Shown here: positions 2,379 through 50,902 of the stretch, piece after piece
Layout of the letters: each line of letters begins with the position of its first letter
Position numbering within the stretch: the first letter of the stretch is position 1
NCBI GenBank assembly: GCA_035577965.1
Contig: DATJYX010000078.1
Coordinates: 20,590 to 84,589 of the forward strand
Source of the DNA: Vicinamibacteria bacterium
GTDB lineage: Bacteria > Acidobacteriota > Vicinamibacteria > Fen-336
Reading direction: 5' to 3'
Length of the DNA stretch: 64,000 nt
The notes under the pieces: model-generated
Told to the model about the DNA's origin: nothing
Databases searched by the model: none
The model's input: only the letters and a program-made list of their open reading frames with translations
Made by a program: the position numbers and the translations under genes

Positions 2379-2435
2379 CCTGAGCCTCGGCCGGCCGCCG
2401 ACCGGCGCGGCCGGGGTCGGCGGGCGCCACGGCAG

Positions 2436-2464
2436 TTGAACGGGCTGGACGGCGCTCCTAGACT
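2436..2464 (+). promoter_or_regulatory. sigma70-like promoter TTGAAC-17 nt-TAGACT; the kgd ATG lies 7 nt downstream (probable leaderless or near-leaderless transcript)
   Basis: The -35 is at 2436-2441 (5/6 to TTGACA). An exact 17-nt spacer separates it from the -10 at 2459-2464. ATG 2472 begins the conserved Kgd N-terminus. Confidence 0.4.
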
Positions 2465-2471
2465 CTCAGGA

Positions 2472-8130: not shown

Positions 8131-8132
8131 AG

Positions 8133-9152
8133 ATGGCCGCGACCGTCCCGACGTACACGAAGAAGGACTTCCAGAGCGACCAGGAGGTGCGCTGGTGCCC
8201 GGGCTGCGGGGACTACGCGATCCTCGCCGCGGTCCAGTCGGTCTTCCCGGAGCTCGGCGTCCCTCGGGAGAAGTTCGTGGTCGTGTCGGGCATCGGCTGC
8301 TCGAGCCGCTTCCCGTACTACATGGGGACGTTCGGCTTCCACGGGATCCACGGCCGGGCGCCGGCGATCGCGACGGGGCTCAAGATCGCGCGGCCCGACC
8401 TCGAGGTCTGGGTCGCGACGGGAGACGGGGACTCCCTCTCGATCGGCGGCAACCACACGATCCACATGCTGCGCCGCAATGTCGGGATCAAGGTGCTCCT
8501 CTTCAACAACCGGATCTACGGCCTCACCAAGGGCCAGTACTCGCCCACGTCCGAGCTCGGGAAGAAGGCGAAATCGACGCCCTACGGCTCCCTCGATCGT
8601 CCCTTCAACCCGCTGTCGCTCGCCCTCGGGGCGGAGGCGACGTTCGTGGCCCGCTCGGTGGACGTCTTCCAGCCCCACCTGAAGGCGGTGCTCCGCAAGG
8701 CCGCCGCCCACGAGGGCTCTGCCTTCGTCGAGGTGCTGCAGAACTGCAACATCTTCAACGACGGGGCGTGGGAGAACCTGACCGACAAGGACGTGCGCGA
8801 CGACCACACGATCGCGGTCGAGCACGGGAAGCCGCTCGTCTTCGGCAAGAACCGCGACCGGGGCCTCCGCACGAAGGGGCTCGCCCTCGAGGTGGTGAAG
8901 CTCGGCGGCGGCGTGAGCGAGGCGGACCTGATCGTGCACGACGAGCGCAATCCGAACCCCGCGTACGCGTTCCTCCTGTCGCGGATGGACTCGACACCGG
9001 GCTTTCCGACACCGATCGGCGTCCTGCGCGCGGTCGAGGCTCCGCGCTACGAGGTGCAGATCGACGAGCAGGTGCGCGCGGTGACCGATCGCAAGGGGAA
9101 GGGCGATCTCTCGCGCCTCCTGCGGGCGGGCGACACCTGGGAGGTGCGGTGA
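8133..9152 (+). CDS. korB: 2-oxoglutarate:ferredoxin oxidoreductase beta subunit (TPP-binding, KorB)
   Basis: The 339-aa C-terminal part of track ORF 6735..9152 begins at ATG 8133, 2 nt after the korA stop. It has a CPGCGDY Fe-S/TPP motif and a GDGD TPP-binding motif typical of KorB. Confidence 0.85.
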   Translation: MAATVPTYTKKDFQSDQEVRWCPGCGDYAILAAVQSVFPELGVPREKFVVVSGIGCSSRFPYYMGTFGFHGIHGRAPAIATGLKIARPDLEVWVATGDGDSLSIGGNHTIHMLRRNVGIKVLLFNNRIYGLTKGQYSPTSELGKKAKSTPYGSLDRPFNPLSLALGAEATFVARSVDVFQPHLKAVLRKAAAHEGSAFVEVLQNCNIFNDGAWENLTDKDVRDDHTIAVEHGKPLVFGKNRDRGLRTKGLALEVVKLGGGVSEADLIVHDERNPNPAYAFLLSRMDSTPGFPTPIGVLRAVEAPRYEVQIDEQVRAVTDRKGKGDLSRLLRAGDTWEVR

Positions 9153-17966: not shown

Positions 17967-20051
17967 ATGAGCGCGTCTGTCCCCCCTTCGCCCCGCCGGC
18001 TCAAGGTCGTCTGCCCCCACGACTGCCCCGACACCTGCGTCATGACGGTGGACGTCGAGGACGGCCGCGCGGTCGCGATCGGCGGGGACCCCGACCACCG
18101 CTTCACTCAGGGCTTCCTCTGCGCCAAGGTCAACCAGTACCTCGACCGCGTCTACAGCCCGGAGCGCGTGCTCCACCCGATGAGGCGCGTGGGCCGGAAG
18201 GGAGAAGGCCGCTTCGAGCGGATCACGTGGGACGAGGCCCTCGACACGGTGGCGGGCCGCCTGCGGGAGATCGCTTCGACGCACGGGCCCCAGGCCGTGA
18301 TGCCCTACTCCTACGCCGGCAACATGGGGCTCCTCGGCTACGGCAGCATGGACCGGCGGTTCTTCAACGCCCTCGGCGCGAGCCTCCTCGACCGGACGAT
18401 CTGCTCGACGGCGGGCGCCTACGGCTACAAGGCCACCGCCGGCAAGGCGATGGGCTTCGACCCCGAGGCGGTCGTGCACGCCCGCCTCATCGTCGCCTGG
18501 GGAGCGAACCTCGTCAGCTCGAACGTGCACCTCTGGCCGTTCGTCGAGGAGGCGCGCCGGCGCGGGGCGCGCCTCGTGTGCGTCGACCCCTTCCGCTCCC
18601 GCACCGCCGAGATGGCCGACCTCCACGTCGCGCTCCTCCCCGGCACCGATGCCGCGCTCGCCCTGGGGATGATGCACGTCGCCTTCCGCGACGGGCTGGA
18701 GGACCGGGACTTCCTCGAGCGCCACACGGTCGGCCACACGGAGCTGCGCGAGCGGGCGCGGGAGTGGCCGCCCTCGCGGGTGGCGGAGACGACGGGCCTG
18801 CGGCCGGCGGAGATCGAGGCCTTCGCGCGCGAGTACGCCACGACGCGGCCCTCGGCGATCCGCCTCAACTACGGCCTCAACCGGCACGCCGGGGGCGGCA
18901 TGGCGGTACGGACGATCGCCTGCCTGCCCGCGGTGGTGGGGGCCTGGCGCGACGTCGGCGGCGGGGCGCTCCTCTCGACCTCGGGTACCTTCCCGGTGGA
19001 CGACGACGCCCTCCAGCGGCCCGACCTCGTTCCCCCCGGCACGCGCACCCTGAACATGAGCCAGCTCGGCCGGATCCTGAACGACCCGTCGCTCGAGCCT
19101 CCGGTCCAGGCGCTCTTCGTCTACAACTCGAACCCGGCCGCGGTGGCCCCGGAGCAGGACGCGGTGCGGCGGGGCCTCGCGCGGGAGGACCTCTTCCTCG
19201 TCGTGCACGAGCAGTTCCAGACCGACACGGCCGACTTCGCCGACGTCCTGCTCCCGGCCACGACGACGCTCGAGCACTACGACATCCACAAGGCCTACGG
19301 GCACCTCTACGTCAGCCTCAGCCGCCCGGCCATCGCGCCTCTCGGCGAGGCGGTCTCGAACACCGATCTCTTCCGTCGCCTCGCCGCCCGGATGGGGCTC
19401 GACCACCCGTGCCTGCGCGAGTCGGACGAGCAGATGGCGCGGCAGGCGTTCAGGTGGGACCACCCGTTCATGGCCGGGATCACCTTCGAGCGGCTCGAGC
19501 GCGAGGGCTCGGTGCGCCTCGCGGTGCCCGATCCCTTCGTGCCGTTCGCCCAGGGGGCGTTCCCGACGCCGTCGGGGAAGTGCGAGCTGCGGTCCGAGAA
19601 GCTCCTCGCCGAGGGGCACGACCCGGTGGCGGGGTACGTGCCGCCGCGCGAGGGACCCACGAGCGCGCCCGCGCTCGCCGAGCGGTATCCGCTGGCCTTC
19701 ATCTCGCCCCCCGCCCACCACTTCCTGAACTCGACCTTCTCCGCCCAGCCGGTCTTCGTGCGGCGCGAGGGCGAGGCGAGCGTCACCATCCATCCCGACG
19801 ACGCCGGCCCGAGGGGGATCGCGGACGGCGCGATGGCGCGGGTCTTCAACGACCGCGGCTCGTTCCTCGCCCGAGCCCGAGTCTCCGACGCGGCGCGGCC
19901 GGGGGTCGTCGTCGGCCTGTCGATCTGGTGGGCCAAGCTCTGCCCCGGAGGCCGCAACGCCAACGCGGTCACCGGCCAGGAGCTGACCGACATGGGAGGA
20001 GGCGCGACCTTCTACGACGCGCTCGTCGACGTGGAAGGGGTCCGGTCTTGA
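17967..20051 (+). CDS. molybdopterin-dependent oxidoreductase (DMSO-reductase superfamily, cytoplasmic, N-terminal 4Fe-4S)
   Basis: The 694-aa ORF has an N-terminal CPHDCPDTC...C cluster motif and molybdopterin dinucleotide-binding regions. There is no Tat signal and no in-frame TGA. Confidence 0.8.
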   Translation: MSASVPPSPRRLKVVCPHDCPDTCVMTVDVEDGRAVAIGGDPDHRFTQGFLCAKVNQYLDRVYSPERVLHPMRRVGRKGEGRFERITWDEALDTVAGRLREIASTHGPQAVMPYSYAGNMGLLGYGSMDRRFFNALGASLLDRTICSTAGAYGYKATAGKAMGFDPEAVVHARLIVAWGANLVSSNVHLWPFVEEARRRGARLVCVDPFRSRTAEMADLHVALLPGTDAALALGMMHVAFRDGLEDRDFLERHTVGHTELRERAREWPPSRVAETTGLRPAEIEAFAREYATTRPSAIRLNYGLNRHAGGGMAVRTIACLPAVVGAWRDVGGGALLSTSGTFPVDDDALQRPDLVPPGTRTLNMSQLGRILNDPSLEPPVQALFVYNSNPAAVAPEQDAVRRGLAREDLFLVVHEQFQTDTADFADVLLPATTTLEHYDIHKAYGHLYVSLSRPAIAPLGEAVSNTDLFRRLAARMGLDHPCLRESDEQMARQAFRWDHPFMAGITFERLEREGSVRLAVPDPFVPFAQGAFPTPSGKCELRSEKLLAEGHDPVAGYVPPREGPTSAPALAERYPLAFISPPAHHFLNSTFSAQPVFVRREGEASVTIHPDDAGPRGIADGAMARVFNDRGSFLARARVSDAARPGVVVGLSIWWAKLCPGGRNANAVTGQELTDMGGGATFYDALVDVEGVRS

Positions 20052-39518: not shown

Positions 39519-40388
39519 CTAGCGCCCGGTCGTGAGGGCGTCCCCGGGAGCGATTCCCCTCTCGGCCTTGCCGTAGTCGAGCTCGCTCCCGCGCAGGCTG
39601 TGGGGGACGACGTACACGGCGAGCATGACGAGCGCCGCGAGGACGGCCGTCCCCCGCGCGACGCGGTCGGCCGGGTCCGGCCGCCGCCCGAGGACGACCG
39701 CGGCCGCCACCCAGGCCAGCCACATGGCGAGCGTCTTGTCGTCGGTCAGGTCCCCGCCGAACGGCCACCCCGTCCAGAGCGCGCCGAAGGCGAGCTTCTG
39801 GACGATCGGCCCCAGGACCAGCCCCCCGATACCGATTCCGACCACGGCGACCCACGCGTAGCGCCGGGCCTCGGGCCGGCCGAAGGCGGCGGCGAGGGCG
39901 GCCCGGACGCCGATCATCATCGACAGGAACATGGTCACCACGTGCGGGACGAGCACGAGCGCCGGCACGTCGCCCTTGAAGCGCATGACGACGGGCGCCC
40001 CCTCGGGGACCCGGACCGGGCCCGCGGGCGTCGCGAGCGTCACGTCGTACTCCAGCTTCCCCGCCGGCGGCTGGGTCGGGAGGAGGCCCACGAGCGTCTC
40101 GCCCTCGCGGCTCATCGCGACCTCCCGGAAGAGATCGGCGGTCGGGTAGCGGCGGTAGCGCACGACGCCCGTCACCCCTGGCGGCGCCTGCACCACCACC
40201 ATGAGCGGCTCGCCCGACGTTGCGCTGCGCAGGAGCCGCCACCTCACCGGCCGTCCGGCGACGACGGTCGTGCCGAGGCGCGGGTGCGTGGGGCCGGTCA
40301 GGCGCTGCCAGACCGCGGCGCCCACCATGAGGAGGAGCGCGGCGATCCAGAGCAGGACGGCCGATCGATGGCTTCGCGGATCAGGCAC
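39519..40388 (-). CDS. hypothetical membrane protein (1 TM + periplasmic domain + 4 TM), downstream of znuB-like gene
   Basis: The 289-aa ORF has hydrophobic helices flanking a soluble domain of about 100 aa. No recognised family. Confidence 0.45.
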   Translation of the reverse strand: MPDPRSHRSAVLLWIAALLLMVGAAVWQRLTGPTHPRLGTTVVAGRPVRWRLLRSATSGEPLMVVVQAPPGVTGVVRYRRYPTADLFREVAMSREGETLVGLLPTQPPAGKLEYDVTLATPAGPVRVPEGAPVVMRFKGDVPALVLVPHVVTMFLSMMIGVRAALAAAFGRPEARRYAWVAVVGIGIGGLVLGPIVQKLAFGALWTGWPFGGDLTDDKTLAMWLAWVAAAVVLGRRPDPADRVARGTAVLAALVMLAVYVVPHSLRGSELDYGKAERGIAPGDALTTGR

Positions 40389-40425: not shown

Positions 40426-41277
40426 TCAGCCCGGCTGGCCGGACGTCCGCCGGAGAAGCGGTCTCACCGCGGCCATCAGGACGAGGACGAGACCGAAGGT
40501 GCACACCATGGCCGCCCCGGTGGGAAGGTCGAGCTTCACCGAGAGGTAGATGCCGAGGAAGGAGACGACGAAGCCCATCGTCCAGCCGATGGCGAGGCGG
40601 GGGCCGACCCGATCTGCGTAGAGCATCGCCGCCACGGAGGGGACGATCAGGTAGCAGAACACGAGGAGCACTCCCGCGATGAGAACCGACGAGGTCACCA
40701 CGAAGCCGAAGGACGCGTAGAAGAGGAAGTCCCAGAACCTCACGTTGAGCCCGTCGCGCTCGGCCCTCTCGCGGTCCATGGAGATGGCCAGGAACTGGCG
40801 GCGGAACAGGTAGTGGAAGGCGCCGATCACGGCGTACAGGGCCGCGGTCTTGCCCACCTCCCACCACGAGACGGCCAGGATGTTGCCGACCAGCATCTCC
40901 TTGAGGTGCTCGCTCTCCGACGTGGCGTGGCTCATGGCGAGGATGGTGGCCGCCGAGGCCACGGCGTAGGCGATGCCGATGATCGCCTCCTGGGGGATGC
41001 GGGCGCGGCGGATCCTGATCGTCGAGAAGATCGCGGCGCCGATGAAGGTGAAGACGAGACCCATCGGGTAGACCCACGGCCCGTGGGGATCCTGCCCGGT
41101 GAAGGGAAGCAGGATCGCGATGGTGGAGCCGAGGGCGGCGATCTGGGCGAGCGAGAGGTCGACGAAGATGACGCCGCGCTCGACGACGTGGACGCCGAGG
41201 TAGGCGTGGATGCCGGTGAGGATCAGGCTGGCCACGAGCGGGGCGGCCAGGAACCGGAGGTAGTCGACGAAGTCCAT
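40426..41277 (-). CDS. znuB: metal ABC transporter permease (ABC-3, ZnuB/MntB family)
   Basis: The 283-aa polytopic ORF has the ABC-3 family conserved region (GNILAVSWWEV, IVPSVAAML). The start is 1 nt after the znuA-like stop. Confidence 0.8.
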   Translation of the reverse strand: MDFVDYLRFLAAPLVASLILTGIHAYLGVHVVERGVIFVDLSLAQIAALGSTIAILLPFTGQDPHGPWVYPMGLVFTFIGAAIFSTIRIRRARIPQEAIIGIAYAVASAATILAMSHATSESEHLKEMLVGNILAVSWWEVGKTAALYAVIGAFHYLFRRQFLAISMDRERAERDGLNVRFWDFLFYASFGFVVTSSVLIAGVLLVFCYLIVPSVAAMLYADRVGPRLAIGWTMGFVVSFLGIYLSVKLDLPTGAAMVCTFGLVLVLMAAVRPLLRRTSGQPG

Positions 41278-41278
41278 G

Positions 41279-42196
41279 CTATCTGGCTCCCGTTTCCTTG
41301 GCCGCGGCCACCAGCAGGCCGAGATCGTGGTCGAACAACGTGATGTAGTCGGTGACGTCCTTCTCGCCCCCGACCGAGGGCGGCATCACCAGCACCTTGG
41401 CTCCGGTCTCCCGGCCGATCGAGTTCGGTGTCTTGAGGTCGAAGTACGGCTCGACGAGGAGGATCTTCACGTTCTGCCGCTTCATCTCGGCGATGAGGTC
41501 GAGGGTGTGGCTCGGGGAGGGCGGGATGCCGGGGCGGGGCTCGACGTAGCCGACGACGTCGAGTCCGAAGCGGTCGGCGAGGTTGGGCCAGGAACGGTGG
41601 TAGGTCACGATCTTCAGGCCCTTGTAGGGGGCCATCATGGCATCCCAGCGCTTCTCGGCCTCGGCGATCCGCTTGTCGAAGTCGGCGCAACGGGAGGCGA
41701 AGTACGAGGCGTCGCCGGGGGCCATCCGGGAGAGCTTCTCCAGGATGGCCCTTGCGACGCGGCGGCCGTTGTCCGGGTCGAGCCAGTAGTGCGGGTTCCC
41801 GAGCGGGTGCACGTCGCCCATGGCACGGGTGATCTGGCCGGTCGGGATCTCGAGGATCTTCACGGTCAGGGAGGCGTCGAGGTAGCCGTCGGCACCGGGC
41901 TGGATCTTCGCGTTGCGGCTCTGCTGGATGAGCGGGGGAAGCCAGCCGATCTCGAGCTCGCGGCCGACCACGACGAGGAGGTCGGCCTTCGAGAGCTTGA
42001 GGATGAAGCTGGGCTTCGCCTCGACGAAGTGCGGGTCCTGGTAGCCGCGGGCGATCGACTCCACCTTGACCCGATCGCCGCCCACCTGGCGGGTGAGGTC
42101 GGCGAGGTCCTCGGTGGCGGCCATGACGTTGACGGCGGCCCGGGCCGGCGGGGAGGCGGCGACGACGGCGAGCGCGGTGATCGTCAGGAGTCTCAT
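41279..42196 (-). CDS. znuA: metal ABC transporter substrate-binding protein (TroA/ZnuA cluster A-I family)
   Basis: The 305-aa ORF has a signal peptide and ZnuA/TroA-like motifs (YQDPHF, GNPHYWLDP, TYHRSW). It lacks a His-rich loop. Confidence 0.8.
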   Translation of the reverse strand: MRLLTITALAVVAASPPARAAVNVMAATEDLADLTRQVGGDRVKVESIARGYQDPHFVEAKPSFILKLSKADLLVVVGRELEIGWLPPLIQQSRNAKIQPGADGYLDASLTVKILEIPTGQITRAMGDVHPLGNPHYWLDPDNGRRVARAILEKLSRMAPGDASYFASRCADFDKRIAEAEKRWDAMMAPYKGLKIVTYHRSWPNLADRFGLDVVGYVEPRPGIPPSPSHTLDLIAEMKRQNVKILLVEPYFDLKTPNSIGRETGAKVLVMPPSVGGEKDVTDYITLFDHDLGLLVAAAKETGAR

Positions 42197-42208
42197 GGGC
42201 GGCCTCGA

Positions 42209-43597
42209 TCAGAAGGGATGGGCGCCGTGGGCGCCGATCGCGTAGATGAACTGGAAGAGGAACTCGTCCGCCTTGTTCCCTTCCCCGAAGTAGGTGTGGC
42301 GGTACTGGCCGCGGATCTGGCTGAACTCGCTCGGCCAGTAGGTGAGGATGAACGAGCCGCCGGTGTCGCGGAGGCCCGGCGTGAAGGCTCGCTGCGAGTT
42401 GTCGTATCGCACGCCGGCGAACCAGCGCCGGCCGAACTGGTACTCCAGGTAGCCGTAGCCCCCGACGGCGTCCTGCGGTCCGGCCAGGTTCTCGGCCCGG
42501 CTCCACGTCACCTCGCCGCGGGCGATCAGGTGGGTGTAGATGGAGCGTCGCAGCGGCCGCCACCGTAGCGTCGCGTCGACGCCGAGGAGGCGTGTCGTGG
42601 TGTCGGCGGTGACGCCGTTGTGGCCGTAGGCGATCGAGCCACCGAGGTCGAGGTTGGTCGACTCGGAGAGGTCCTGGTAGCCGCGCAGGTGGCCCACGTA
42701 GGCGAGGTCGCCTCGCGTCGGCGCCTTGAAGACCTCCGACTCGCCGCGGTAGACCTGCCCGGTCGCCTCGAGGAAGATCCAGGGGTTCGGGACGAGGCGG
42801 GCGACCGAGATGCCGGCGTCGGAGAGGGCGTCCTCGCCGCCGAGGAGGTTCTTCGACACCAGGGGACGGTCGATGAACGGAAGCACGTGGTTGTGCTGGC
42901 TGTCGACCTTGCCGAAGGCGTCCCTCATCTTGCCGACCTTCAGCAGGAACCCCCCGGGCAGGGTGGGGAAGGTGATGAAGCCTTCCTCGACGCCCACCTC
43001 GTCGGGCCCGACGGTGAAGAAGAAGTCGGCCCGGGCGTAGGGGTCGACGACGGCCTGGAAGGAGATCTCCGACTCGTGCATCTCGAGCGACGGCTCTCCG
43101 CCTCCGGGCGACTTCCCGGCGGCGCCGATGAAGTCGCCGATCACCGCGATGTCGGGGTTGAAGACCTTGGATGCCGAGGCTCCGCCCCCGTAGACGGGGA
43201 GTGCGCTCGGGCCGCCCTCGGTGGCAGCGCCGGGCGGAACGGCCGCCGTCGTCGTCGGCGGCGCCTCGACCGGGGGCGCGGGCGAAGGCGCTGCGGCCGA
43301 GGCGGCCTGGGCGCCTGCCAGCGGCTGGCCCGCGGCCTCGGCGGTCGGCGTCGGAGCGGCCGCGCTGGGCGCGCCACCGCTCTCGAGGGCCGTGATGCGG
43401 GACTCGATGGCGGCGAGGCGTTGGCTGTACTCCTGGCGCAGCGCCTCGAGATCGTGTCTGAGCCGGGCCAGGTCCTCGCTGGCGGGCGTGGCCGTGGCCG
43501 GCGGGCTCTGGGCGGCGGAACTGGAGGGAGGCGGCGCGATCGCCAGAGCACTACCGGCCAGGACGAAAGATGTCACGGCACGGGACCACAGACGCAT
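42209..43597 (-). CDS. outer-membrane beta-barrel (porin-like) protein with N-terminal coiled-coil/Ala-Pro-rich linker
   Basis: The C-terminal 462 aa of track ORF 42209..45760 begin at ATG 43597 with signal peptide MRLWSRAVTSFVLAGSALA. Alternating amphipathic beta-strands and a C-terminal aromatic residue (..AHGAHPF) are typical of OM beta-barrels. Confidence 0.55.
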   Translation of the reverse strand: MRLWSRAVTSFVLAGSALAIAPPPSSSAAQSPPATATPASEDLARLRHDLEALRQEYSQRLAAIESRITALESGGAPSAAAPTPTAEAAGQPLAGAQAASAAAPSPAPPVEAPPTTTAAVPPGAATEGGPSALPVYGGGASASKVFNPDIAVIGDFIGAAGKSPGGGEPSLEMHESEISFQAVVDPYARADFFFTVGPDEVGVEEGFITFPTLPGGFLLKVGKMRDAFGKVDSQHNHVLPFIDRPLVSKNLLGGEDALSDAGISVARLVPNPWIFLEATGQVYRGESEVFKAPTRGDLAYVGHLRGYQDLSESTNLDLGGSIAYGHNGVTADTTTRLLGVDATLRWRPLRRSIYTHLIARGEVTWSRAENLAGPQDAVGGYGYLEYQFGRRWFAGVRYDNSQRAFTPGLRDTGGSFILTYWPSEFSQIRGQYRHTYFGEGNKADEFLFQFIYAIGAHGAHPF

Positions 43598-43823
43598 GTC
43601 TTCCTCGAGCACGGAACCGGAGCCACTCGTGCCCGATCCTGGCGGCGCGCGTTCGTCACGCGCGGCCCTGGACCCGGCGGGGAACCTACGAGAGTCGGCA
43701 CAGGCGGCGGGCGGCCCCCGCCACGAGGCGGCGCGCTGGGGCAGAGAGAAGGGCTCGGTCACCACGTCCGGAGTCCCGAGCTGGAGAAGGCAGGCGTTGC
43801 AGTGCGTCTCGAGGAGACAGACC

Positions 43824-43852
43824 ACTCTATCCAAGGGTCCCCAGCCGGTCAA
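43824..43852 (-). promoter_or_regulatory. sigma70-like promoter TTGACC-17 nt-TAGAGT on the minus strand, overlapping the selD stop codon, followed by a roughly 220-nt leader before the OMP-znuAB genes
   Basis: The -35 (43852..43847) contains the TGA of selD, and the -10 is at 43829..43824. The first downstream start codon is at 43597. Confidence 0.4.
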
Positions 43853-46083
43853 TCGACCTCTCCGCTTCGAGAGAAGACGCGGATCCGGCCCGGGCCGGGG
43901 GTGGTGAAGCGCCCCACGCGCCGGCATTCCTCCACCCCGCGCGCCCGGAGCGCGTGGAGGAGGGCTTCTGTCCGCTCCCGAGGCACGGCGATCAGGAGGC
44001 CGCCGGACGTCTGGGCGTCGGCGAGGAGGACGCGGTCGACGCGGGAGAGGTCGGGCGCCCACTCCACGAAGGGAGAGACGTGCTCGAGGTTGTCGAGCGT
44101 GCCCCCCGGCACGGCGTCGGCCGCGACCAGCTCCCTTGCCGGCTCCAGCACCGGCACCGCGCCCGCCTCCAGCTCGGCGTCGAGGGAGGAGGCCACGGCC
44201 ATCTCCCGCAGGTGCCCGAGGAGGCCGAAGCCGGTCACGTCGGTGCAGGCGTCGGCTCCGACCTCCAGCATCGCCTCGGCGGCGGCGCGGTTCAACCGCC
44301 GCATCGTGGCGACCGCGCGGCGCGCGACCGTCTCGTCGGCCAGGCCGCGCTTCACCGCCGTGGCGAGGATGCCCGTCCCGATCGGCTTGGTGAGGACCAG
44401 CGAGTCGCCCGCCCGCGCGCCTGCGTTCTTCACCACGCGGTCCGGCCGCACCACTCCCGTCACGGCGAGGCCGAACTTCGGCTCCGTGTCGTCCACGGTG
44501 TGCCCGCCGACGATGCAGACGCCCGCCTCCCGCGCCACCTCCGCCGCTCCCTCGAGGATGCGCTCGAGGACGCTCAGGGGCAGGCGGCGGGACGGGAACC
44601 CGACGACGCTCAGCGCGAAGAGGGGCTTCGCCCCCATCGCATAGACGTCGCTCAGGGAGTTCGCCGCGCTGACCGCGCCGAAGTCGAACGGGTCGTCGGC
44701 GATCGGGGTGAAGAAGTCGACGGTCGAGACGAGGGCGAGATCGGGACCGAGCCGGTAGACGGCGGCGTCGTCCGCGGTCGAGGCGTCGACCAGGACGGCC
44801 GGGTCGGTGACCTTCGGCAGCTTCTTCAGCACCTGCTCGAGGTCCTGGGGACGCAGCTTGCAGGCGCAGCCCAGGCCGTGGGTGAAGCGGGTGAGCCGGA
44901 TCGTCTCGTCCCGCCCCTCCACCGCGACCGACGGCCGGGTCTCCGGTCGGAGACGGCGAACGGCCTCGGCCACGATCCCGACCGCCTCGTCGATCTCCCG
45001 CTCCGTCGTGCCCCGCCCCACCGAGAAGCGCAGCGTGCCCATGGCGTAGCGCATGGGCACCCGCATCGCTTCGAGGACGGTCGAGAGGTCGACCCCCTGC
45101 GCGTGGCACGCCGCGCCCGCCGAAGCGGCGAGCCTCTCCCCGATCTCGGCGAGGAGCGTGCTCGCCTCGACCCCTCCGATGCCGACGCTGAGTGTGTTGG
45201 GCAGGGCCGCCTCGACGCTGCCGTTGCGGCGCAGGTCGCCGATCTCCCGCGAGAGCCCCTCCCAGAGTCGGTCGCGCAGGGTCGCGAAGTGGCGGCCGTT
45301 CGCCTCGAGGTTCCTCCGCGCGATCGCGCAGGCCTCGCCCAGCCCCACGATCTCGAGCACGTTCTCCGTCCCCGCCCGGCGTCCCGCCTCGTGGCCGGCG
45401 CCCAGGATGAGCCGCGGCGCTTCCACGCCCGAGCGGACGTAGAGCGCGCCGACGCCCTTCGGCGCATAGAGCTTGTGGCCGGCGAGGCTCAGGAAGTCGA
45501 CCCCCAGCTCGCCGACGTCCACCGGGATCTTGCCCGGCGACTGGGCGGCGTCGGTGTGGACGAGGATGCCCCGCTCGCGGGCGAGGCGGGAGATCTCCGC
45601 GATCGGCTGGATCGTCCCCACCTCGTTGTTCGCGTGCATGATCGTGACGAGGATCGTCTCCGGCGTGAGGGCTCTCGCCACGTCGGCGGGGTCCACGCGG
45701 CCCTCCTCGTCGACGGGGACGCGGGTGATCCTGTAGCCCTCGGCGCCGAGGGCGGCGCACGGCTCGAGGACCGCCGGGTGCTCGACGGCCGAGGTGACGA
45801 CGTGGCGTCCCCGGGCGCGCAGTCGGCGGACCACGCCGAGGATCACCGTGTTGCTGGCCTCCGAGCCCCCGCTCGTGAACACGATCTCCTCGGGCCGGGC
45901 GCCGAGGAGGCCCGCCACCTGGAGGCGGGCCTTCTCTACGGCGAGCCGAGCCGCCGCCCCGTACGGGTGGCTGCTCGAGGGGTTGCCGAAGTGCTCGTAG
46001 AGGAAGGGGAGCATCGCCTCGGCCACGGCGGGGTCGACGGGCGTCGTGGCGTTGTAGTCGAGGTAGATCGGGCGATCGGTCAC
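43849..46083 (-). CDS. selD: fusion protein: NifS-like cysteine desulfurase/selenocysteine lyase (N-terminal) + selenide, water dikinase SelD (C-terminal)
   Basis: A GTG at 46083 (residue 289 of the track ORF) starts a class-V aminotransferase domain (IYLDYNATTP, PLP-lysine SLAGHKLYAPKGVGALYVR, active-site Cys ASAGAACHA). This runs continuously into SelD (TRFTHGLGCACKL with Cys at the Sec/Cys position, DVTGFGLLGHL). No stop separates the two halves. The GTG overlaps the TGA stop of the upstream MBL gene. Confidence 0.8.
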   Translation of the reverse strand: MTDRPIYLDYNATTPVDPAVAEAMLPFLYEHFGNPSSSHPYGAAARLAVEKARLQVAGLLGARPEEIVFTSGGSEASNTVILGVVRRLRARGRHVVTSAVEHPAVLEPCAALGAEGYRITRVPVDEEGRVDPADVARALTPETILVTIMHANNEVGTIQPIAEISRLARERGILVHTDAAQSPGKIPVDVGELGVDFLSLAGHKLYAPKGVGALYVRSGVEAPRLILGAGHEAGRRAGTENVLEIVGLGEACAIARRNLEANGRHFATLRDRLWEGLSREIGDLRRNGSVEAALPNTLSVGIGGVEASTLLAEIGERLAASAGAACHAQGVDLSTVLEAMRVPMRYAMGTLRFSVGRGTTEREIDEAVGIVAEAVRRLRPETRPSVAVEGRDETIRLTRFTHGLGCACKLRPQDLEQVLKKLPKVTDPAVLVDASTADDAAVYRLGPDLALVSTVDFFTPIADDPFDFGAVSAANSLSDVYAMGAKPLFALSVVGFPSRRLPLSVLERILEGAAEVAREAGVCIVGGHTVDDTEPKFGLAVTGVVRPDRVVKNAGARAGDSLVLTKPIGTGILATAVKRGLADETVARRAVATMRRLNRAAAEAMLEVGADACTDVTGFGLLGHLREMAVASSLDAELEAGAVPVLEPARELVAADAVPGGTLDNLEHVSPFVEWAPDLSRVDRVLLADAQTSGGLLIAVPRERTEALLHALRARGVEECRRVGRFTTPGPGRIRVFSRSGEVD

Positions 46084-46928
46084 GCCGCCGCGCCCGCGAG
46101 GTCGAGCCGCAGCCCCTCCCGCGCCACGAGGTTCCCGTCCGACTCCGAGGCGAGCTCGCGCTCGATCGCCGACATCGCCTCGTCGTCGTGGTCCGGGTCG
46201 TGGTGGAAGACGGCCAGTCGCTTCGCTCCCGCCCGGCGCAGGAGGCGCAGGCCCTCCTGCCAGGTAGAGTGGCCCCAGCCCACGCGCGCCGGGAAGCCGG
46301 CGTCGGTGTAGGTCGAGTCGTAGACGACGAGGTCGGCCCCCGCGATCAGCTCCAGCACCCGCTCGTCGGGCCGTCCGGGCACGTGCTCGGTGTCGGTCAC
46401 GTAGCAGATCGAGCGACCGCGGTGCTCGATGCGGTAGGCCGTCGCCCCGTTCGGGTGGTTGAGCGGAGCGGTGCGCGCGCGCAGGCCGGGGCCGAGGTCG
46501 AGCGTCTCGCCGGCGGGGAAGTCGGTGAACTTGAGGCGGGCCCGCATGACGTCGAGGGGCACCGGGAACATCGGCTCGTGCATGTGGCCTGCGATCGCCT
46601 CGCGGATGCCGCCCTCCCCGGCGAGGTGACCGGCGAACACCCGGAACGTGCAGCCGGGCTCGAAGGCGGGAGCGAAGAACGGGAAGCCGTTGACGTGGTC
46701 CCAGTGGGTGTGGCTGAAGAGGATGTCGGCCTCCGTAGCACCCTCCCGCTTGAGGATCTGGCCGAGGGGACGGATGCCGGTCCCGGCGTCGAGGATGAGG
46801 ATCCTCTCGCCCGCCCGCACCTCGAGGCAGCTCGTGTTGCCTCCGAAGACCATGTGGGAGGGCGACGGGCAGGCGATGCTCCCGCGCACTCCCCAGAAGC
46901 GGACCGTCAGGGCCGGCCCTTCCACCAT
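46080..46928 (-). CDS. MBL-fold metallo-hydrolase (RNase Z/ElaC-like architecture)
   Basis: The 282-aa ORF has an HTHWDH metal-binding motif, an N-terminal VRFWGVRGS and downstream His/Asp ligands. It is translationally coupled (GTGA) to the NifS-SelD gene. Confidence 0.75.
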   Translation of the reverse strand: MVEGPALTVRFWGVRGSIACPSPSHMVFGGNTSCLEVRAGERILILDAGTGIRPLGQILKREGATEADILFSHTHWDHVNGFPFFAPAFEPGCTFRVFAGHLAGEGGIREAIAGHMHEPMFPVPLDVMRARLKFTDFPAGETLDLGPGLRARTAPLNHPNGATAYRIEHRGRSICYVTDTEHVPGRPDERVLELIAGADLVVYDSTYTDAGFPARVGWGHSTWQEGLRLLRRAGAKRLAVFHHDPDHDDEAMSAIERELASESDGNLVAREGLRLDLAGAAA

Positions 46929-46934
46929 GCGCCG

Positions 46935-48458
46935 ATGATACCCCCACGACCAGGCGCGATAATCCGGAGCCGAGCGAGGACCGCCCTGGCCAGGACCCAC
47001 GAGCCGACGGAGTCGGTCGCCGCCCTCCGGGACGCAGTGGCCGTCTTTCTCCTGGCCGCCGCCGCGGCGGTCTACGGCGGCGTCAATCACTACCGCCTCG
47101 CCCACTTCTATCCGCTCGAGTGGGACCTCGCCATCTTCGAGCAGGGACTCTCCCGGCTGACGCGCCTCGAGGCGCCGATCGTCACCGTGCGCGGGATGAG
47201 CCTGTTCGGGGACCACGCGAGCTTCGTCCACGTGATCCTCGCCCCGCTCGACGCGCTCCTCGGTCCGGCGCTCGGCCCGCACCTGCTCCTCCTCGTCCAG
47301 ACCGCCGCCCTCGCCCTGTCGGGCGCGCTCCTCTTCGGCGTCGCTCGTTCCCGTCTTCCCGCCCCTACGGCCCGTCTCGTCCTCGCCGCGTACCTCCTCT
47401 ACCCGCCCCTCCAGCACACGTGGCTCGAGTATTACGAGCCCGTGAACCTGGCCGTGCCCTGCCTGATCGGGGCCTGGGTGGCGATCCGGGAAGAGCAGGA
47501 CCGCGCGGCCCTCCTCTGGTCGGGCCTCGCCCTCCTCACGATGGAGAACGTGGCCCTCACCGTCGCCGCTCTCGGAGGCCTGGCACTCGTGCGGGGCCGG
47601 CGGCGGCTGGGCGGCGTCCTCGCCGGGGGAGCCCTCGGGTACGTCCTGCTGCTGATGGCCTTCGTCTTCCCGCGCCTCCACCCGGGCGGATACGTCTACG
47701 GGGAGCGGCTCTACGGGGACTTCGCCACCGACCTGCCCGGCGCCCTCGCCTATCTCGCGCGCCCCGACCGGCTGCTCGGGCGGCTCGCGGCGGAGGGGAA
47801 CGCGACCTACCTCGCCGGCCTCCTCCTGCCCGCGGGCTTCCTTCCCCTGCTCGCCCCGGGCGCGCTCGTCCTCGCCGTTCAGCTTCCGCTGAACATGATC
47901 TCGTCCTGGCCCTACGCCCGGGAGATCCGCTACCACTACGTCGCGCCGATCGTTCCGTTCGTCTTCCTGGCCGTGATCGAGGCTCTGGCCGCCCGCCCGG
48001 CGGGCGGCCGCGGTCGCCGGCTCGGCGTCACCCTGCTCGTCACGGGCACTCTCGCCGGCCAGTGTCTCTTCGCCTCGCCCTGGCTCACCTCGACGCGCTA
48101 CTGGCGCGGGCTCGCTCGGGACGCCTCGGAGAGGCAGGAGACGGCGACCCTCCTCGCCCTGGTGCCGAAGGAGGCCTCGGTCTCGGCCCAGTACCGGTTC
48201 CTGCCGCACCTGGCCCGGCGCCGGCAGCTCTACATGCTCCCCGATCTCGGCCCCGGCGCCGGTCCCGACGCCGTGGTCGTGGACATCGCCGAAGCGCAGA
48301 GGAGCGACCGCGATCGCGAGGCGCTCCGTCGCGTCCTCTCCCGCTGCCGCGAGGCCGGGCGCACGAGCGGGGGCACGGCGCTCCTGTGGTGCGAGGAGGC
48401 GCCCCCGGCACGCGGGCTCTCGCCCCCGACTGCAAGACCGTCGGCCCCTCCTCGCTGA
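46935..48458 (+). CDS. DUF2079-like polytopic membrane protein
   Basis: The C-terminal 507 aa of track ORF 46188..48458 start at ATG 46935 (Met250). There are more than 10 TM helices and a C-terminal soluble region. The start is uncertain because it lies only 6 bp from the divergent MBL start. Confidence 0.5.
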   Translation: MIPPRPGAIIRSRARTALARTHEPTESVAALRDAVAVFLLAAAAAVYGGVNHYRLAHFYPLEWDLAIFEQGLSRLTRLEAPIVTVRGMSLFGDHASFVHVILAPLDALLGPALGPHLLLLVQTAALALSGALLFGVARSRLPAPTARLVLAAYLLYPPLQHTWLEYYEPVNLAVPCLIGAWVAIREEQDRAALLWSGLALLTMENVALTVAALGGLALVRGRRRLGGVLAGGALGYVLLLMAFVFPRLHPGGYVYGERLYGDFATDLPGALAYLARPDRLLGRLAAEGNATYLAGLLLPAGFLPLLAPGALVLAVQLPLNMISSWPYAREIRYHYVAPIVPFVFLAVIEALAARPAGGRGRRLGVTLLVTGTLAGQCLFASPWLTSTRYWRGLARDASERQETATLLALVPKEASVSAQYRFLPHLARRRQLYMLPDLGPGAGPDAVVVDIAEAQRSDRDREALRRVLSRCREAGRTSGGTALLWCEEAPPARGLSPPTARPSAPPR

Positions 48459-48482
48459 TGACTCGTCGGATCGTCCCCGATC

Positions 48483-48518
48483 CCGCAGATCGCTCGTTCT
48501 GGCGAGCGCGATCTGCGG
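48483..48518 (+). other. GC-rich imperfect hairpin (14/16-nt arms, 6-nt loop) between the DUF2079 stop and cbiM
   Basis: ccgcagatcgctcg-ttctgg-cgagcgcgatctgcgg. There is no U-tract. It may act as a terminator, an operator or an RNA stability element. Confidence 0.35.
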
Positions 48519-48558
48519 CCGCGGGACGGCCGAGGCGTCCTGGGAGACAATCGCGGGG

Positions 48559-49506
48559 ATGCACATACCGGACGGCTTCCTGAGCGCGGGCGTGTGCGCG
48601 GGCACGTGGGCGGCCTCGGCCGCGACCCTCGGCTGGGCGCTCCGCGGGGAGAGACGGGACGCCGAGCGCGTCCCCGCGGGGACGCTCGGCGCCCTCTCCG
48701 CCTTCGTGTTCGCGGTCCAGATGGTCAACGTTCCTCTCTTGCCCGGCACGAGCGGGCACCTCGTGGGCGGGATGCTGGCCGCGGCCCTCGTCGGTCCCGG
48801 GCGGGGGCTCGTCGTCATGGCCGTGGTGCTGGCCGTGCAGGCCCTGCTCTTCCAGGACGGCGGCGTCACGACGTTCGGCGCGAACCTCCTCACGATGGGT
48901 GGAGCGGGATCCCTCGGAGGGCACGCGGTGGCCTCGCTGGTGATCCGCGTCGTTCCCGGGGTGCGGGGGCTCGTGGCGGGGCCGGTGGTCGGCGCGTTCG
49001 TGGGCACGCTCGTCGGGGCGGCCTTCGTCGCCCTGGCCCTCGCCCTCTCGGGCCTCTACCCGGTCTGGGCCGTGCTCCCCGTGCTCCTCTCGCTCCACCT
49101 GCCGATCGCGCTCCTCGAGGCCGCTCTCACCGGCGCGATCCTGGCCACGGTCCTGCGCTGGCGTCCCGACCTCGTCCGAGGCCTGCAGGCGGCGGGCCGG
49201 CCCTCCTCCCGCTCCGCTCCCGTTCTCGGCGGCTTCGTCGTCGCGCTCGCGGTGGCGGCGTTCCTCGCCCCGTTCGCCTCGAGGCTGCCGGACGGGCTCG
49301 AGGCGGCGGCCGAGCGGCTCGGCTTCGCGGGGGCGGCGCGCGCGCTCTGGCCGGCTCCGGCACCCGACTACGCGCTGCCGTGGTCGGCGCTCGGGCGCGC
49401 CGGGACGGCCGTGGCCGGCGTCCTCGGGACCGTGGCCACGGCCGTGCTCGCCTGGGGCCTCTCGCGCGGGACGAGCGCGCCGCGGGAGAAGGGACCCCGC
49501 CGGTGA
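48559..49506 (+). CDS. cbiM: ECF-type cobalt/nickel transporter substrate-capture component CbiM with C-terminal CbiN-like two-helix extension
   Basis: Hallmark N-terminus MHIPDGFL, and 315 aa compared with about 230 aa for CbiM alone. The extra C-terminal region has two TM helices like CbiN. Confidence 0.8.
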   Translation: MHIPDGFLSAGVCAGTWAASAATLGWALRGERRDAERVPAGTLGALSAFVFAVQMVNVPLLPGTSGHLVGGMLAAALVGPGRGLVVMAVVLAVQALLFQDGGVTTFGANLLTMGGAGSLGGHAVASLVIRVVPGVRGLVAGPVVGAFVGTLVGAAFVALALALSGLYPVWAVLPVLLSLHLPIALLEAALTGAILATVLRWRPDLVRGLQAAGRPSSRSAPVLGGFVVALAVAAFLAPFASRLPDGLEAAAERLGFAGAARALWPAPAPDYALPWSALGRAGTAVAGVLGTVATAVLAWGLSRGTSAPREKGPRR

Positions 49507-50135
49507 AGGGCTCGCGGCCGGGCCTCGTCCTCGCCGCCGGCCTCGCGCTGGCGGCTGCGGCCGCCCTCGCTCCGGCCGGCCTCGCCGGCTCGCCCGCTCC
49601 CGGCTGGTCGTGGGGCGTGTGGGGGCTCGCCTTCGCGGGCGGGGCCCTGGCCTTCCTCCTCGCGGGCAGCACGCTGCCGCAGGTCGTGCGGCGGCTCTCG
49701 TGGCTCCTGCCCTTCGTCCTCGTCCTCGCCGTGCCCGCCGCCCTCCTCGCCCCTCCCGGCCGTCGCCTGGGCACCGCGGCCGCCCTCGCGGCGCGGGCCC
49801 TCGCCGCGACTGCCGCCGCCGCGGGGACCGCCTTCCGGCTGGGCCCACTCGGCCTGGTGCGCGGGGCGCGGGCGCTCGGCGCTCCCGCGCGCCTCGTGGA
49901 CGTCCTGGAGACCGCGCTGGCGAGCCTCTTCGCCATGCTCGACCAGGCGACGGCCATGCTCCGCGCGCGCGAGGCCCGGCGGACGGTGCACGGGCCTTGG
50001 GCGTCGGTCGTCCGCGAGCCCACCTCGACCGTGCGGGCCTTCGGGCGCTTCGCAGGCGCGTTGCTCCTTCGGACCCTGGAGCGCGCGGAGGCCCTCGAGC
50101 GGGCCCGGCTCGCGCGCGGCGCAGACCTCCGATGA
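49503..50135 (+). CDS. cbiQ: ECF transporter transmembrane (T) component CbiQ
   Basis: The 210-aa hydrophobic ORF starts at a GTG overlapping the cbiM stop (GTGA). It sits between cbiM and cbiO. Confidence 0.65.
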   Translation: MKGSRPGLVLAAGLALAAAAALAPAGLAGSPAPGWSWGVWGLAFAGGALAFLLAGSTLPQVVRRLSWLLPFVLVLAVPAALLAPPGRRLGTAAALAARALAATAAAAGTAFRLGPLGLVRGARALGAPARLVDVLETALASLFAMLDQATAMLRAREARRTVHGPWASVVREPTSTVRAFGRFAGALLLRTLERAEALERARLARGADLR

Positions 50136-50902
50136 GCGTCGCCCCGGCGGCGGTCGAGGTCGAGGGCCTCGCGTACCACTACCCGGACGGGTCTCCCGCC
50201 CTCCGCTCGGTGTCGTTCCGGGTCGCGCCCGGCGAGCGCGTGGCCCTCCTCGGCCCCAACGGGGCCGGCAAGTCCACGCTCCTCCTGCACCTCGCCGGCC
50301 TCCTGCCCGAGAGGCAGCGCTACCTCCACCGTCACGACCCCGGCGACGCGCCCCACCGCCACGACGTCCAGGGCCGGGTGACGATCGACGGCGTCCTTCT
50401 CGATCCGGCGACGGCGCGCGCGCTGCGGGCGCGGGTGGGCATCGTCTTCGAGGACCCGGACGACCAGATCGTGGGGCTCACGGTCGAGGAGGACGTCGCG
50501 TTCGGTCCTCGCGCGCGGCGCTGGGCGCGGGGCGAGGCGGAGGCCGCGGTGCGCGAGGCGCTCGGCGCCGTCGGCCTCGAGGGACGCGAGTCCCGCTTTC
50601 CCCATCACCTCAGCAGCGGGGAGAAGCGCCGTCTCTGCCTCGCCGGCGCGCTCGCGTGCCGGCCCGGCCTGCTCCTGCTGGACGAGCCGTCGTCGGGCCT
50701 CGATCCGCGCGGGCGCCGCGAGCTGGCGGCGCTCCTGGCCGGCCTCCCGGCGACGCTGGTCGTGGCGAGCCACGACCTCTCGCTCGTGGAGCGGCTCTGC
50801 GCGCGGGCGATCGTCCTCGACGGCGGGAGCCTCGTCGCGGACGCCCCGGTCGGCGAGGTGCTCTCCGACCACGGCCTGCTCGCGCTCCACGGGCTCGCAT
50901 GA
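50132..50902 (+). CDS. cbiO: ECF transporter ATPase CbiO
   Basis: Walker A GPNGAGKST, signature LSSGEKRR, Walker B LLLDEP, and an H-loop. The ATG overlaps the cbiQ stop (ATGA). Confidence 0.85.
   Translation: MSVAPAAVEVEGLAYHYPDGSPALRSVSFRVAPGERVALLGPNGAGKSTLLLHLAGLLPERQRYLHRHDPGDAPHRHDVQGRVTIDGVLLDPATARALRARVGIVFEDPDDQIVGLTVEEDVAFGPRARRWARGEAEAAVREALGAVGLEGRESRFPHHLSSGEKRRLCLAGALACRPGLLLLDEPSSGLDPRGRRELAALLAGLPATLVVASHDLSLVERLCARAIVLDGGSLVADAPVGEVLSDHGLLALHGLA

Follow-up and report, generated by a model that had tools for sequence, protein, structure and literature searches.

A conserved NifS-SelD fusion in Vicinamibacteria predicted to pass selenium from a desulfurase to a tethered selenophosphate synthetase

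We report that a soil-type Acidobacterium of the class Vicinamibacteria encodes a NifS-SelD fusion, a protein in which a NifS-like desulfurase domain precedes a complete SelD (selenide, water dikinase) domain in a single open reading frame. Proteins of this kind are already described and annotated, for instance under the database name "cysteine desulfurase NifS/selenium donor protein." We consider it probable (about 0.7) that the fusion is a bifunctional enzyme of this known type, which takes selenium from selenocysteine via Cys326 to SelD and supplies selenophosphate to ordinary users.

Results

A single reading frame joins a desulfurase to a complete SelD

The fusion gene lies at 43849..46083 on the minus strand of the window, the whole 64-kb stretch of DNA analyzed here, and comprises 744 codons plus a TGA stop with no interruption, with Pfam and NCBIfam matches in both halves. 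Its GTG start is supported because third-position GC frame analysis, which places the coding start at this codon, agrees with the N termini of homologs, which begin at matching residues (M-S/T-D-R-P-I/L-Y-L-D-Y-N in alignment A1). A previous sequence-only reading had proposed one polypeptide combining a class-V desulfurase with a complete SelD, and this is borne out: the frame is single, both catalytic centers are intact, the motifs it had pointed out are all present (SLAGHK204LYAPKG, SAGAAC326HA, GC406AC408K409 and DVTGFGLLGH), and both halves pass family models (Pfam for the desulfurase, Pfam and NCBIfam for SelD).

The N-terminal domain (residues 1-380; 44944..46083, minus strand) is of the NifS/IscS type, a PLP-dependent cysteine (selenocysteine) desulfurase. 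Aminotran_5 matches residues 6-365 with 261.4 bits (Pfam cut-off 21.5), and the domain carries both the PLP-binding lysine K204 (45472-45474, minus strand) and the catalytic cysteine C326 of the mobile loop (45106-45108, minus strand), as in group I cysteine desulfurases. H102, D178, Q181, K204 and C326 are invariant or nearly so in alignment A1. The domain can be aligned over its whole length with E. coli IscS (1P3W; residues 4-380, 333 bits), K204 and C326 corresponding to IscS K206 and C328, and shares with IscS and NifS of group I the PLP-lysine and the mobile-loop cysteine within S-x-G-x-A-C. The IscS C-terminal tail of ~20 residues, beyond residue 382, is absent, and the linker and SelD stand in its place. 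Eukaryotic selenocysteine lyase (SCLY; PDB 3GZC, 3A9X) is alike in fold and in the PLP-dependent chemistry of selenium removal and scores 240-248 bits, the desulfurase half being nearer to IscS/NifS than to SCLY. It falls below the NifS equivalog cut-off (TIGR03402, 449.7 versus 530.75 bits) and below four further IscS/DndA/SclA cut-offs (TIGR02006, 377.6 versus 643.2; NF010611, 381.5 versus 548; TIGR03235, 377.3 versus 480; NF040779, the bacterial SclA model, 118.3 versus 525). Judged by these scores, the desulfurase half is a separate NifS-like subfamily, whose preference for selenocysteine or cysteine is not assignable from equivalog models.

The C-terminal SelD domain (residues 393-744; 43852..44907, minus strand) passes the SelD models TIGR00476 (382.7 bits, cut-off 125) and NF002098 (366.5 bits, cut-off 299), with Pfam matches to AIRS (102.7 bits) and AIRS_C (80.1 bits). 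Its N-terminal glycine-rich loop, G-C406-A-C408-K409 (44857-44868, minus strand), aligns with G-C17-G-C19-K20 of E. coli SelD and thus holds the equivalents of Cys17 and Lys20. This loop and the metal/ATP-site residues D439, D456, N475, D479 and D615 are invariant in alignment A1, and selenophosphate-forming activity is predicted for this half. Residues 4-341 of E. coli SelD (3U0O) align at 283 bits with Cys17 and Lys20 matched, and Aquifex aeolicus SelD (2ZOD/2YYE) aligns over its full length at 238 bits; the G-C-x-C-K loop, the Asp/Asn metal ligands and the PurM-like AIRS/AIRS_C fold are common to all three. Unlike the E. coli and Aquifex enzymes, the SelD domain of the fusion is tethered to a desulfurase by ~11 residues, and its loop sits within a fusion-specific conserved motif, THGxGCACKLRPQ. 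An N-terminal extension of a SelD-type domain is likewise found in Ndh-SelD fusions, the commonest SelD fusions in the literature, which carry CxxC at the active site (PMC2398784); there the partner domain is a different one, NADH-dehydrogenase-like, and the window protein does not match the corresponding model, TIGR04369 "fusion_not_SelD" (140 bits versus a cut-off of 700).

The linker (residues 381-392; 44908..44943, minus strand) is the segment left between the two domain alignments and varies in length and sequence in alignment A1. An AlphaFold monomer model is confident for both domains (mean pLDDT 86); pLDDT drops below 50 at residues 382-392 of the linker, and confidence is also low at the Cys326 loop (324-331) and at the N-terminal loop of SelD, a pattern compatible with mobile elements. 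The pTM of 0.55 leaves the geometry between the domains undefined, so that the model does not demonstrate direct channeling.

The fusion is conserved across many phyla

At 90% identity, the window protein falls in a cluster of seven members from NCBI (HXK10514.1, HUL78495.1), JGI and ENA, six of which are 744 aa long and one of which is a 727-aa partial sequence. More than 120 further 90%-identity clusters, 68-86% identical to the window protein, are full-length fusions of ~737 aa, and about a dozen full-length fusion clusters are found at 50% identity. Among the matches listed from scans of genome and metagenome contigs, we collected at least 83 fused loci, from Acidobacteriota, Chloroflexota, Planctomycetota, Calditrichota, Zixibacteria, Caldisericota, Bacteroidota and Deltaproteobacteria. 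The listed matches are mostly distant fusions or unfused NifS or SelD genes and do not include the closest acidobacterial relatives; gene neighborhoods were read from close relatives, and the close-clade statistics draw on ~12 loci. All 17 fused loci matched by a motif scan carry the cysteine form, GCACK, inside KLTxF/YTHGxGCACKLRPQ. Across the fetched loci, no fusion with a TGA-encoded selenocysteine was found, G-U-x-C-K occurring only in unfused SelDs.

That an assembly or sequencing error joined separate nifS and selD genes is a general possibility in high-GC metagenome assembly. Here, the same frame and length recur in seven sequences from three archives, the fusion is present in those further clusters and loci from unrelated samples and phyla, and a short, in-frame linker connects the two halves throughout the fused relatives. 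These observations leave such an error a negligible probability and refute it short of contrary read-level evidence: as far as sequence comparison can tell, the fusion is real and conserved.

The upstream metallo-hydrolase gene is an incidental neighbor

Directly upstream lies a gene for a 282-aa MBL-fold hydrolase (46080..46928, minus strand), a member of the metallo-beta-lactamase superfamily by its Lactamase_B_2 match (78 bits versus 27) and its HxHxDH motif (HTHWDH, present as SHTHWDH). It had been labeled RNase-Z-like. Its scores against ribonuclease Z models fall far below the cut-offs (TIGR02651, 53.5 versus 292.95; NF000801, 51.3 versus 252; NF002558, 58 versus 315), the matches are confined to its C-terminal third, and its best solved relative, the RNase Z 2CBN, aligns partially at 37 bits; the label gives way to that of a generic Lactamase_B_2 protein.

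The fusion GTG (46083-46081) overlaps the TGA of the hydrolase frame (46082-46080), and the GTGA overlap that had been noticed is indeed present at 46080..46083 on the minus strand. Because of this overlap, the two genes are probably co-transcribed in this genome. The sequence-only reading had gone further and proposed a three-activity operon, which as a conserved unit would have the hydrolase process a selenium or sulfur substrate or product of the fusion. An ortholog of the hydrolase does occur in the corresponding region of both closest relatives, although there the MBL-NifS-SelD order is not kept: in one (L002), four unrelated genes separate the fusion from the ortholog (83% identical), which lies 4.4 kb upstream, and in the other (L001), an 84% identical ortholog is 9.1 kb upstream, with a pyrimidine-catabolism-type gene set in the interval. 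By tblastn, the remaining fused loci checked yielded only a partial ortholog at a contig edge in L091, ~4.4 kb upstream as in L002, and the hydrolase is not among the recurrent neighbor families of fused loci. Conservation as a three-enzyme operon is thus very improbable; judged by gene order, the hydrolase gene is an incidental neighbor rather than a conserved partner, and its probable co-transcription with the fusion would not make a functional three-enzyme unit.

Selenium genes accompany the fusion in relatives

Pfam scans of ~40 ORFs in the window found no selA, selB, selU, yqeB or yqeC, and tblastn of E. coli selenium proteins against the window gave no match. There was no tRNA or Rfam match in the window at the Rfam gathering score, nor an Rfam match at E<=1 in the 250-nt leader downstream of the fusion, and no in-frame TGA with coding signal on both sides beyond ordinary gene junctions. 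The earlier statement that selA, selB, ybbB and TGA-containing selenoprotein genes are absent from the window agrees with the Pfam, tblastn and in-frame TGA scans. Eight acidobacterial relatives with long flanks likewise showed no selenium-utilization gene within 10 kb of the fusion. We also considered senA/senB (selenoneine-type), YqeB/YqeC, SelA and SelB as neighbors and rejected them, as they are absent from the Pfam tables and tblastn results for the window and the acidobacterial loci. The consumer of selenophosphate is therefore unseen in this lineage, no selenium gene lying in the window or near the relatives' fusions.

Among the at least 83 fused loci, selU is the most recurrent neighbor: it lies directly upstream on the same strand in nine loci and one partial case, with a gap to the fusion of -18 to +31 bp. 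Three of these selU genes pass MnmH equivalog models (355-392 bits versus cut-offs of 220-241). In a single locus (L097), selB is found 1.6 kb upstream of the fusion (TIGR00475, 347 bits, cut-off 242). This linkage in relatives supports a role of the fusion in ordinary selenophosphate supply.

Discussion

Proposed function and alternatives

In our proposal, free L-selenocysteine is the substrate from which the NifS/IscS-type PLP domain abstracts selenium; cysteine may serve as a sulfur source as well, as it does for other NifS-like enzymes. Carried as a perselenide on Cys326 of the mobile loop, the selenium would reach the tethered SelD domain at its flexible N-terminal loop with Cys406 and Lys409, and this domain would then make selenophosphate with ATP. 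The product would go to ordinary users of selenium whose genes would lie elsewhere in the genome, namely SelU (tRNA 2-selenouridine synthase) and/or the SelA/SelB selenocysteine pathway. Supply of selenium to SelD by NifS-like proteins is possible according to in-vitro work (Lacourciere 2000, as cited in PMC4561486), and NifS-SPS fusions have been predicted to keep selenophosphate synthesis (PMC4561486 and its Supplement S2; PMC2398784). Our search of the literature found no biochemical characterization of a bacterial NifS-SelD fusion.

The two domains could instead act independently, the NifS half serving as a general sulfur donor for Fe-S clusters and thio-cofactors and the fusion achieving only co-regulation, with no selenium hand-over. 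The pTM of 0.55, with no fixed interface, and the proximity of the NifS half to general NifS/IscS models are in line with this. We think it unlikely, as the fusion is maintained with a short linker across many phyla, the linker sets the SelD catalytic loop ~25 residues past the last NifS helix, SelD replaces the IscS tail, and delivery of selenium from NifS to SelD has the in-vitro precedent cited in PMC4561486. A sulfur enzyme is rather unlikely too, whether the desulfurase were to pass sulfide or persulfide to a SelD-like thiophosphate kinase, an idea also raised by the sequence-only reading, or the protein were to serve an "orphan SelD" pathway outside Sec, SeU and the Se cofactor. The SelD half passes the SelD equivalogs, retains Cys17/Lys20 and all metal ligands and leaves "fusion_not_SelD" unmatched; fused relatives lie in selU operons and near selB; and the published fusion cases all come with selenoproteins and Sec machinery (PMC4561486). 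These points weigh more with us than the lack of known selenium-trait genes near the fusion in the window and the eight acidobacterial relatives, the reported orphan SelD genes adjoining cysteine-desulfurase-like genes (PMC5029168) or the SelD-derived family of Crenarchaeota for which a thiophosphate product has been proposed (PMC9312934). Still less probable, in our estimate, is that the fusion is the sole SelD in Vicinamibacteria genomes devoid of selA/selB/tRNA-Sec, selU and yqeB/yqeC, and feeds, as an orphan source, an undescribed selenium pathway, possibly tied to the 289-aa membrane protein family described below.

Relation to known fusions

NifS-SPS fusions have been published from Geobacter daltonii FRC-32, Caldithrix abyssi, Naegleria gruberi and Acanthamoeba castellanii (Zhang 2008, PMC2398784; Mariotti 2015, PMC4561486 Supplement S2), so that the sequence-only reading was correct in stating that such fusions had been noted in selenium surveys. 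They share with the window protein the order of domains, NifS N-terminal and SelD C-terminal in one polypeptide, and the Sec/Cys17 position is a cysteine in the window fusion and in every published case except Geobacter. Each published host had a second, unfused SelD (PMC2398784; PMC4561486). The host of the window fusion belongs to a phylum not listed in either paper, and the family, for which we count at least 83 loci and more than 120 clusters, goes far beyond the "two bacterial instances" of 2015.

The main basis for regarding NifS-like proteins as selenium donors is a body of in-vitro experiments on unfused E. coli proteins. The fusion provides natural "Rosetta-stone" evidence for a NifS-like lyase as the physiological selenium donor to selenophosphate synthetase and a convenient single-polypeptide system for studies of selenium hand-over. 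Our addition is modest: the fusion occurs in at least 83 loci and at least eight phyla, is common in Acidobacteriota and stands repeatedly in an operon with selU. The content of the window leaves the current picture of selenium metabolism unchanged.

Immediately downstream of the fusion in the window is an OMP-ZnuA-ABC-3 uptake operon, which ends with the gene of a 289-aa membrane protein (39519-40388). This protein has only relatives annotated as "hypothetical protein" and no Pfam domains, and members of its family are found next to the fusion in three or more lineages.

A single-polypeptide NifS-SelD fusion

An uninterrupted minus-strand reading frame (43849-46083; 744 codons and a TGA stop) encodes a NifS-like domain fused to SelD. 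The sequence-only reading had described this fusion and assigned it a likely role, both of which stand, and its coordinates, unbroken frame and GTGA overlap with the upstream gene agree with the ORF and its start and stop positions. The window is ~73% G+C, evenly along its whole length, and although the frame remains open further upstream, as far as 46947, third-position GC analysis assigns the start of coding to the GTG at 46083, where the N-terminus shared by aligned homologs (M-S/T-D-R-P-I/L-Y-L-D-Y-N) also begins. This GTG (46083-46081) shares bases with the TGA (46082-46080) of the ORF at 46080-46928.

Profile searches bear out the identity of both halves. Pfam recognizes Aminotran_5 at residues 6-365 (261.4 bits), AIRS at 438-545 (102.7 bits) and AIRS_C at 557-730 (80.1 bits). 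Among NCBIfam models, the SelD half exceeds the curated cut-offs (TIGR00476, 382.7 bits versus 125; NF002098, 366.5 versus 299), while the N-terminal half comes nearest to NifS (TIGR03402, 449.7 bits) and falls below the equivalog cut-offs of NifS, IscS, DndA and the bacterial selenocysteine lyase SclA. E. coli IscS (1P3W) aligns end to end with residues 4-380 (333 bits), matching K204 to its PLP lysine K206 and C326 to its catalytic C328; residues 4-341 of E. coli SelD (3U0O) align with residues ~392-732 (283 bits), with G-C406-A-C408-K409 sitting on G-C17-G-C19-K20 and the Asp/Asn ligands retained. An AlphaFold model derived from 14 fused sequences is confident for both domains (mean pLDDT 86.4), with low confidence exactly at the Cys326 loop (324-331), the linker (382-392) and the SelD N-terminal loop; the pTM of 0.55 leaves the relative placement of the two domains undefined.

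The fusion is real and widespread

The fusion is not an assembly artefact. Its 90% identity cluster holds seven members from NCBI, JGI and ENA, six of 744 aa and one a 727-aa partial, with both NCBI members (HXK10514.1 and HUL78495.1) assigned to "Vicinamibacteria bacterium." Full-length fusions of ~737 aa make up at least 120 further clusters at 68-86% identity, drawn from Vicinamibacteria, Holophagales, Thermoanaerobaculia and other Acidobacteria and labeled "cysteine desulfurase NifS/selenium donor protein" by JGI and "selenide, water dikinase SelD" by NCBI. Among the representative clusters at 50% clustering, about a dozen comprise the full-length fusion, and some of these contain low-complexity inserts of eukaryotic look. 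Scans of genome and metagenome contigs, which brought the fused loci collected to at least 83, extend the fusion to Anaerolineae/Chloroflexota, Phycisphaeraceae, Calditrichaceae, Zixibacteria, Caldisericaceae, Lentimicrobiaceae/Bacteroidota and Deltaproteobacteria. A motif scan found the Cys form in all 17 fused loci matched, within a strongly conserved KLTxF/YTHGxGCACKLRPQ, and Sec (TGA) forms in unfused SelD genes only.

The protein belongs to an already described fusion type and is named correctly in public databases. NifS-SelD fusions had indeed been noted before, as the sequence-only reading stated: a Sec form in Geobacter sp. FRC-32 (PMC2398784) and, later, Cys forms in Caldithrix abyssi, Naegleria gruberi and Acanthamoeba castellanii, each of the published hosts also carrying an unfused SelD, the basis of the authors' inference (PMC4561486, Supplement S2). 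SelD fusions receive only passing mention in later reviews, and the literature searched yielded no biochemical characterization of a NifS-SelD fusion from bacteria. The present fusion differs from that of Geobacter in being a Cys form, and its host phylum, Acidobacteriota, is absent from the fusions listed in PMC2398784 and PMC4561486. Our analysis adds the breadth of the fusion, its linkage to selU and a negative result on the adjacent MBL gene.

Linkage to selenium genes and a proposed relay

Within the window, Pfam scans of ~40 ORFs found no selA, selB, selU, yqeB or yqeC, tblastn with the E. coli proteins recovered none of them either, and no TGA has coding signal on both flanks except at ordinary gene junctions, in keeping with the sequence-only reading, which had seen no selA, selB, ybbB or in-frame-TGA selenoprotein. 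The 64 kb also yield no tRNA and no Rfam match. A molybdopterin oxidoreductase (17967-20051, plus strand; Fe4S4, Molybdopterin and Molydop_binding domains) was rejected as a selenoprotein form, having no in-frame TGA. Eight acidobacterial relatives likewise show no selenium genes in 10-kb flanks, and their neighborhoods are otherwise unalike.

Across the at least 83 fused loci, the most recurrent neighbor is selU (mnmH/ybbB), the tRNA 2-selenouridine synthase gene, which immediately precedes the fusion in the same orientation, with -18 to +31 bp between them, in nine loci and one partial (abutting or overlapping the fusion in contig loci L012, L118, L127, L128, L129, L131, L134, L144, L146 and L147). 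All three selU neighbors tested pass MnmH/SelU equivalog models (355-392 bits versus 220-241), and in another locus, L097, selB lies 1.6 kb upstream (TIGR00475, 347 bits versus 242). We found no mention of a selU-nifS-selD operon in the literature searched on these fusions. This linkage is separate, genome-based evidence for selenophosphate supply by the fused enzyme to standard selenium pathways. The suggestion that it might instead yield thiophosphate is not upheld, given that the SelD half passes SelD models and relatives are linked to selU and selB; a lineage devoid of every known selenium trait, with the fusion supplying some new process, appears very improbable.

The best-supported reading is a four-step selenium relay. 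The PLP domain would take selenium off selenocysteine, carry it as perselenide at Cys326, on a mobile loop, and then hand it to a second mobile loop (Cys406/Lys409) in the tethered SelD domain, which would form selenophosphate with ATP. Whereas domain content, key residues, conservation and linkage to selU and selB are direct observations, we infer the hand-over from the fused architecture and from earlier in-vitro experiments on E. coli NifS-like proteins as separate polypeptides (Lacourciere 2000, as cited in PMC4561486).

The MBL gene is not a conserved partner

The gene at 46080-46928 (minus) encodes an MBL-fold hydrolase (Lactamase_B_2, 78 bits; HTHWDH motif). Its earlier "RNase-Z-like" label does not hold: RNase Z models score just 51-58 bits against cut-offs of 252-315, and RNase Z 2CBN, the top match among solved structures, aligns only in part (37 bits). 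Nor does the proposed three-activity operon survive comparison with the two closest relatives. In L002 (fusion 86% and MBL ortholog 83% identical) 4.4 kb and four unrelated genes intervene; in L001 (both 84%) the gap is 9.1 kb and contains pyrimidine-catabolism-type genes. A partial ortholog lies at a contig edge ~4.4 kb upstream in L091 (an 85% relative), as in L002, and the remaining fused loci searched have none. The GTGA overlap is therefore local to this genome, where the two genes are probably co-transcribed, and the pair is no conserved functional unit.

Metal-transport and other neighbors

In this clade only, the fusion lies in a metal-transport neighborhood. Divergent from the MBL gene are a DUF2079 membrane protein, CbiM-PDGLE, a CbiQ-like ORF and an ABC ATPase (46905-50902, plus), the last three forming an ECF-type Co/Ni uptake system; the CbiQ-like ORF has no Pfam match, and its L002 counterpart is CbiQ. 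On the other side, a sigma-70-like promoter-like site (TTGACC-17-TAGAGT, 43852-43824) overlaps the fusion stop codon and precedes a minus-strand operon of an outer-membrane-protein (OMP)-like gene without Pfam match (42209-43597), ZnuA (41279-42196), an ABC-3 permease (40426-41277) and, closing it in this clade, an uncharacterized 289-aa membrane protein (39519-40388). No ATPase gene lies at 40426-43852 (minus).

No Rfam family matches the 250-nt leader after the promoter-like site, even at E<=1. At 43600-43830 (minus) the leader contains what is left of a small Cys-motif ORF (ETHCNACLLQLG), intact as a 95-aa gene in L002 (12281-12568) and present in L091; here the ORF lacks its N-terminal part and, with the stop codon lost, reads into the OMP frame. 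In L001 (15800-19850 of a 1.06-Mb contig), the genes for the OMP, ZnuA and the membrane protein are each broken across several frames, reflecting either assembly indels or pseudogenes.

The 289-aa protein, with one N-terminal TM segment, a C-terminal TM bundle and a probable periplasmic domain, has no Pfam or NCBIfam match, and its ~1267 homologs are all "hypothetical." In at least three lineages it neighbors NifS-SelD, at 427 bp downstream in L003 (12663-13481) and L092 (3872-4690) and 7 bp upstream in L115 (9191-9967); further homologs occur in L002 (15733-16602) and L156 (3982-4848). Two single cases possibly hint at methylation of seleno-amino acids: a gene resembling homocysteine S-methyltransferase (PF02574, with weak matches to NCBIfam) 45 bp downstream of the fusion in a 70% identical relative (L090, 12271-13230), and a divergent SAM methyltransferase upstream of the fusion in L003.

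Far from the fusion, a 1256-aa protein (2379-6149, plus) joins an E2-type 2-oxoacid acyltransferase catalytic domain to 2-oxoglutarate dehydrogenase E1 domains, a layout that we take to be of the OdhA/Kgd type familiar from Actinobacteria, here in an Acidobacterium. A 2-oxoacid:ferredoxin oxidoreductase pair (6235-9152) adjoins it.
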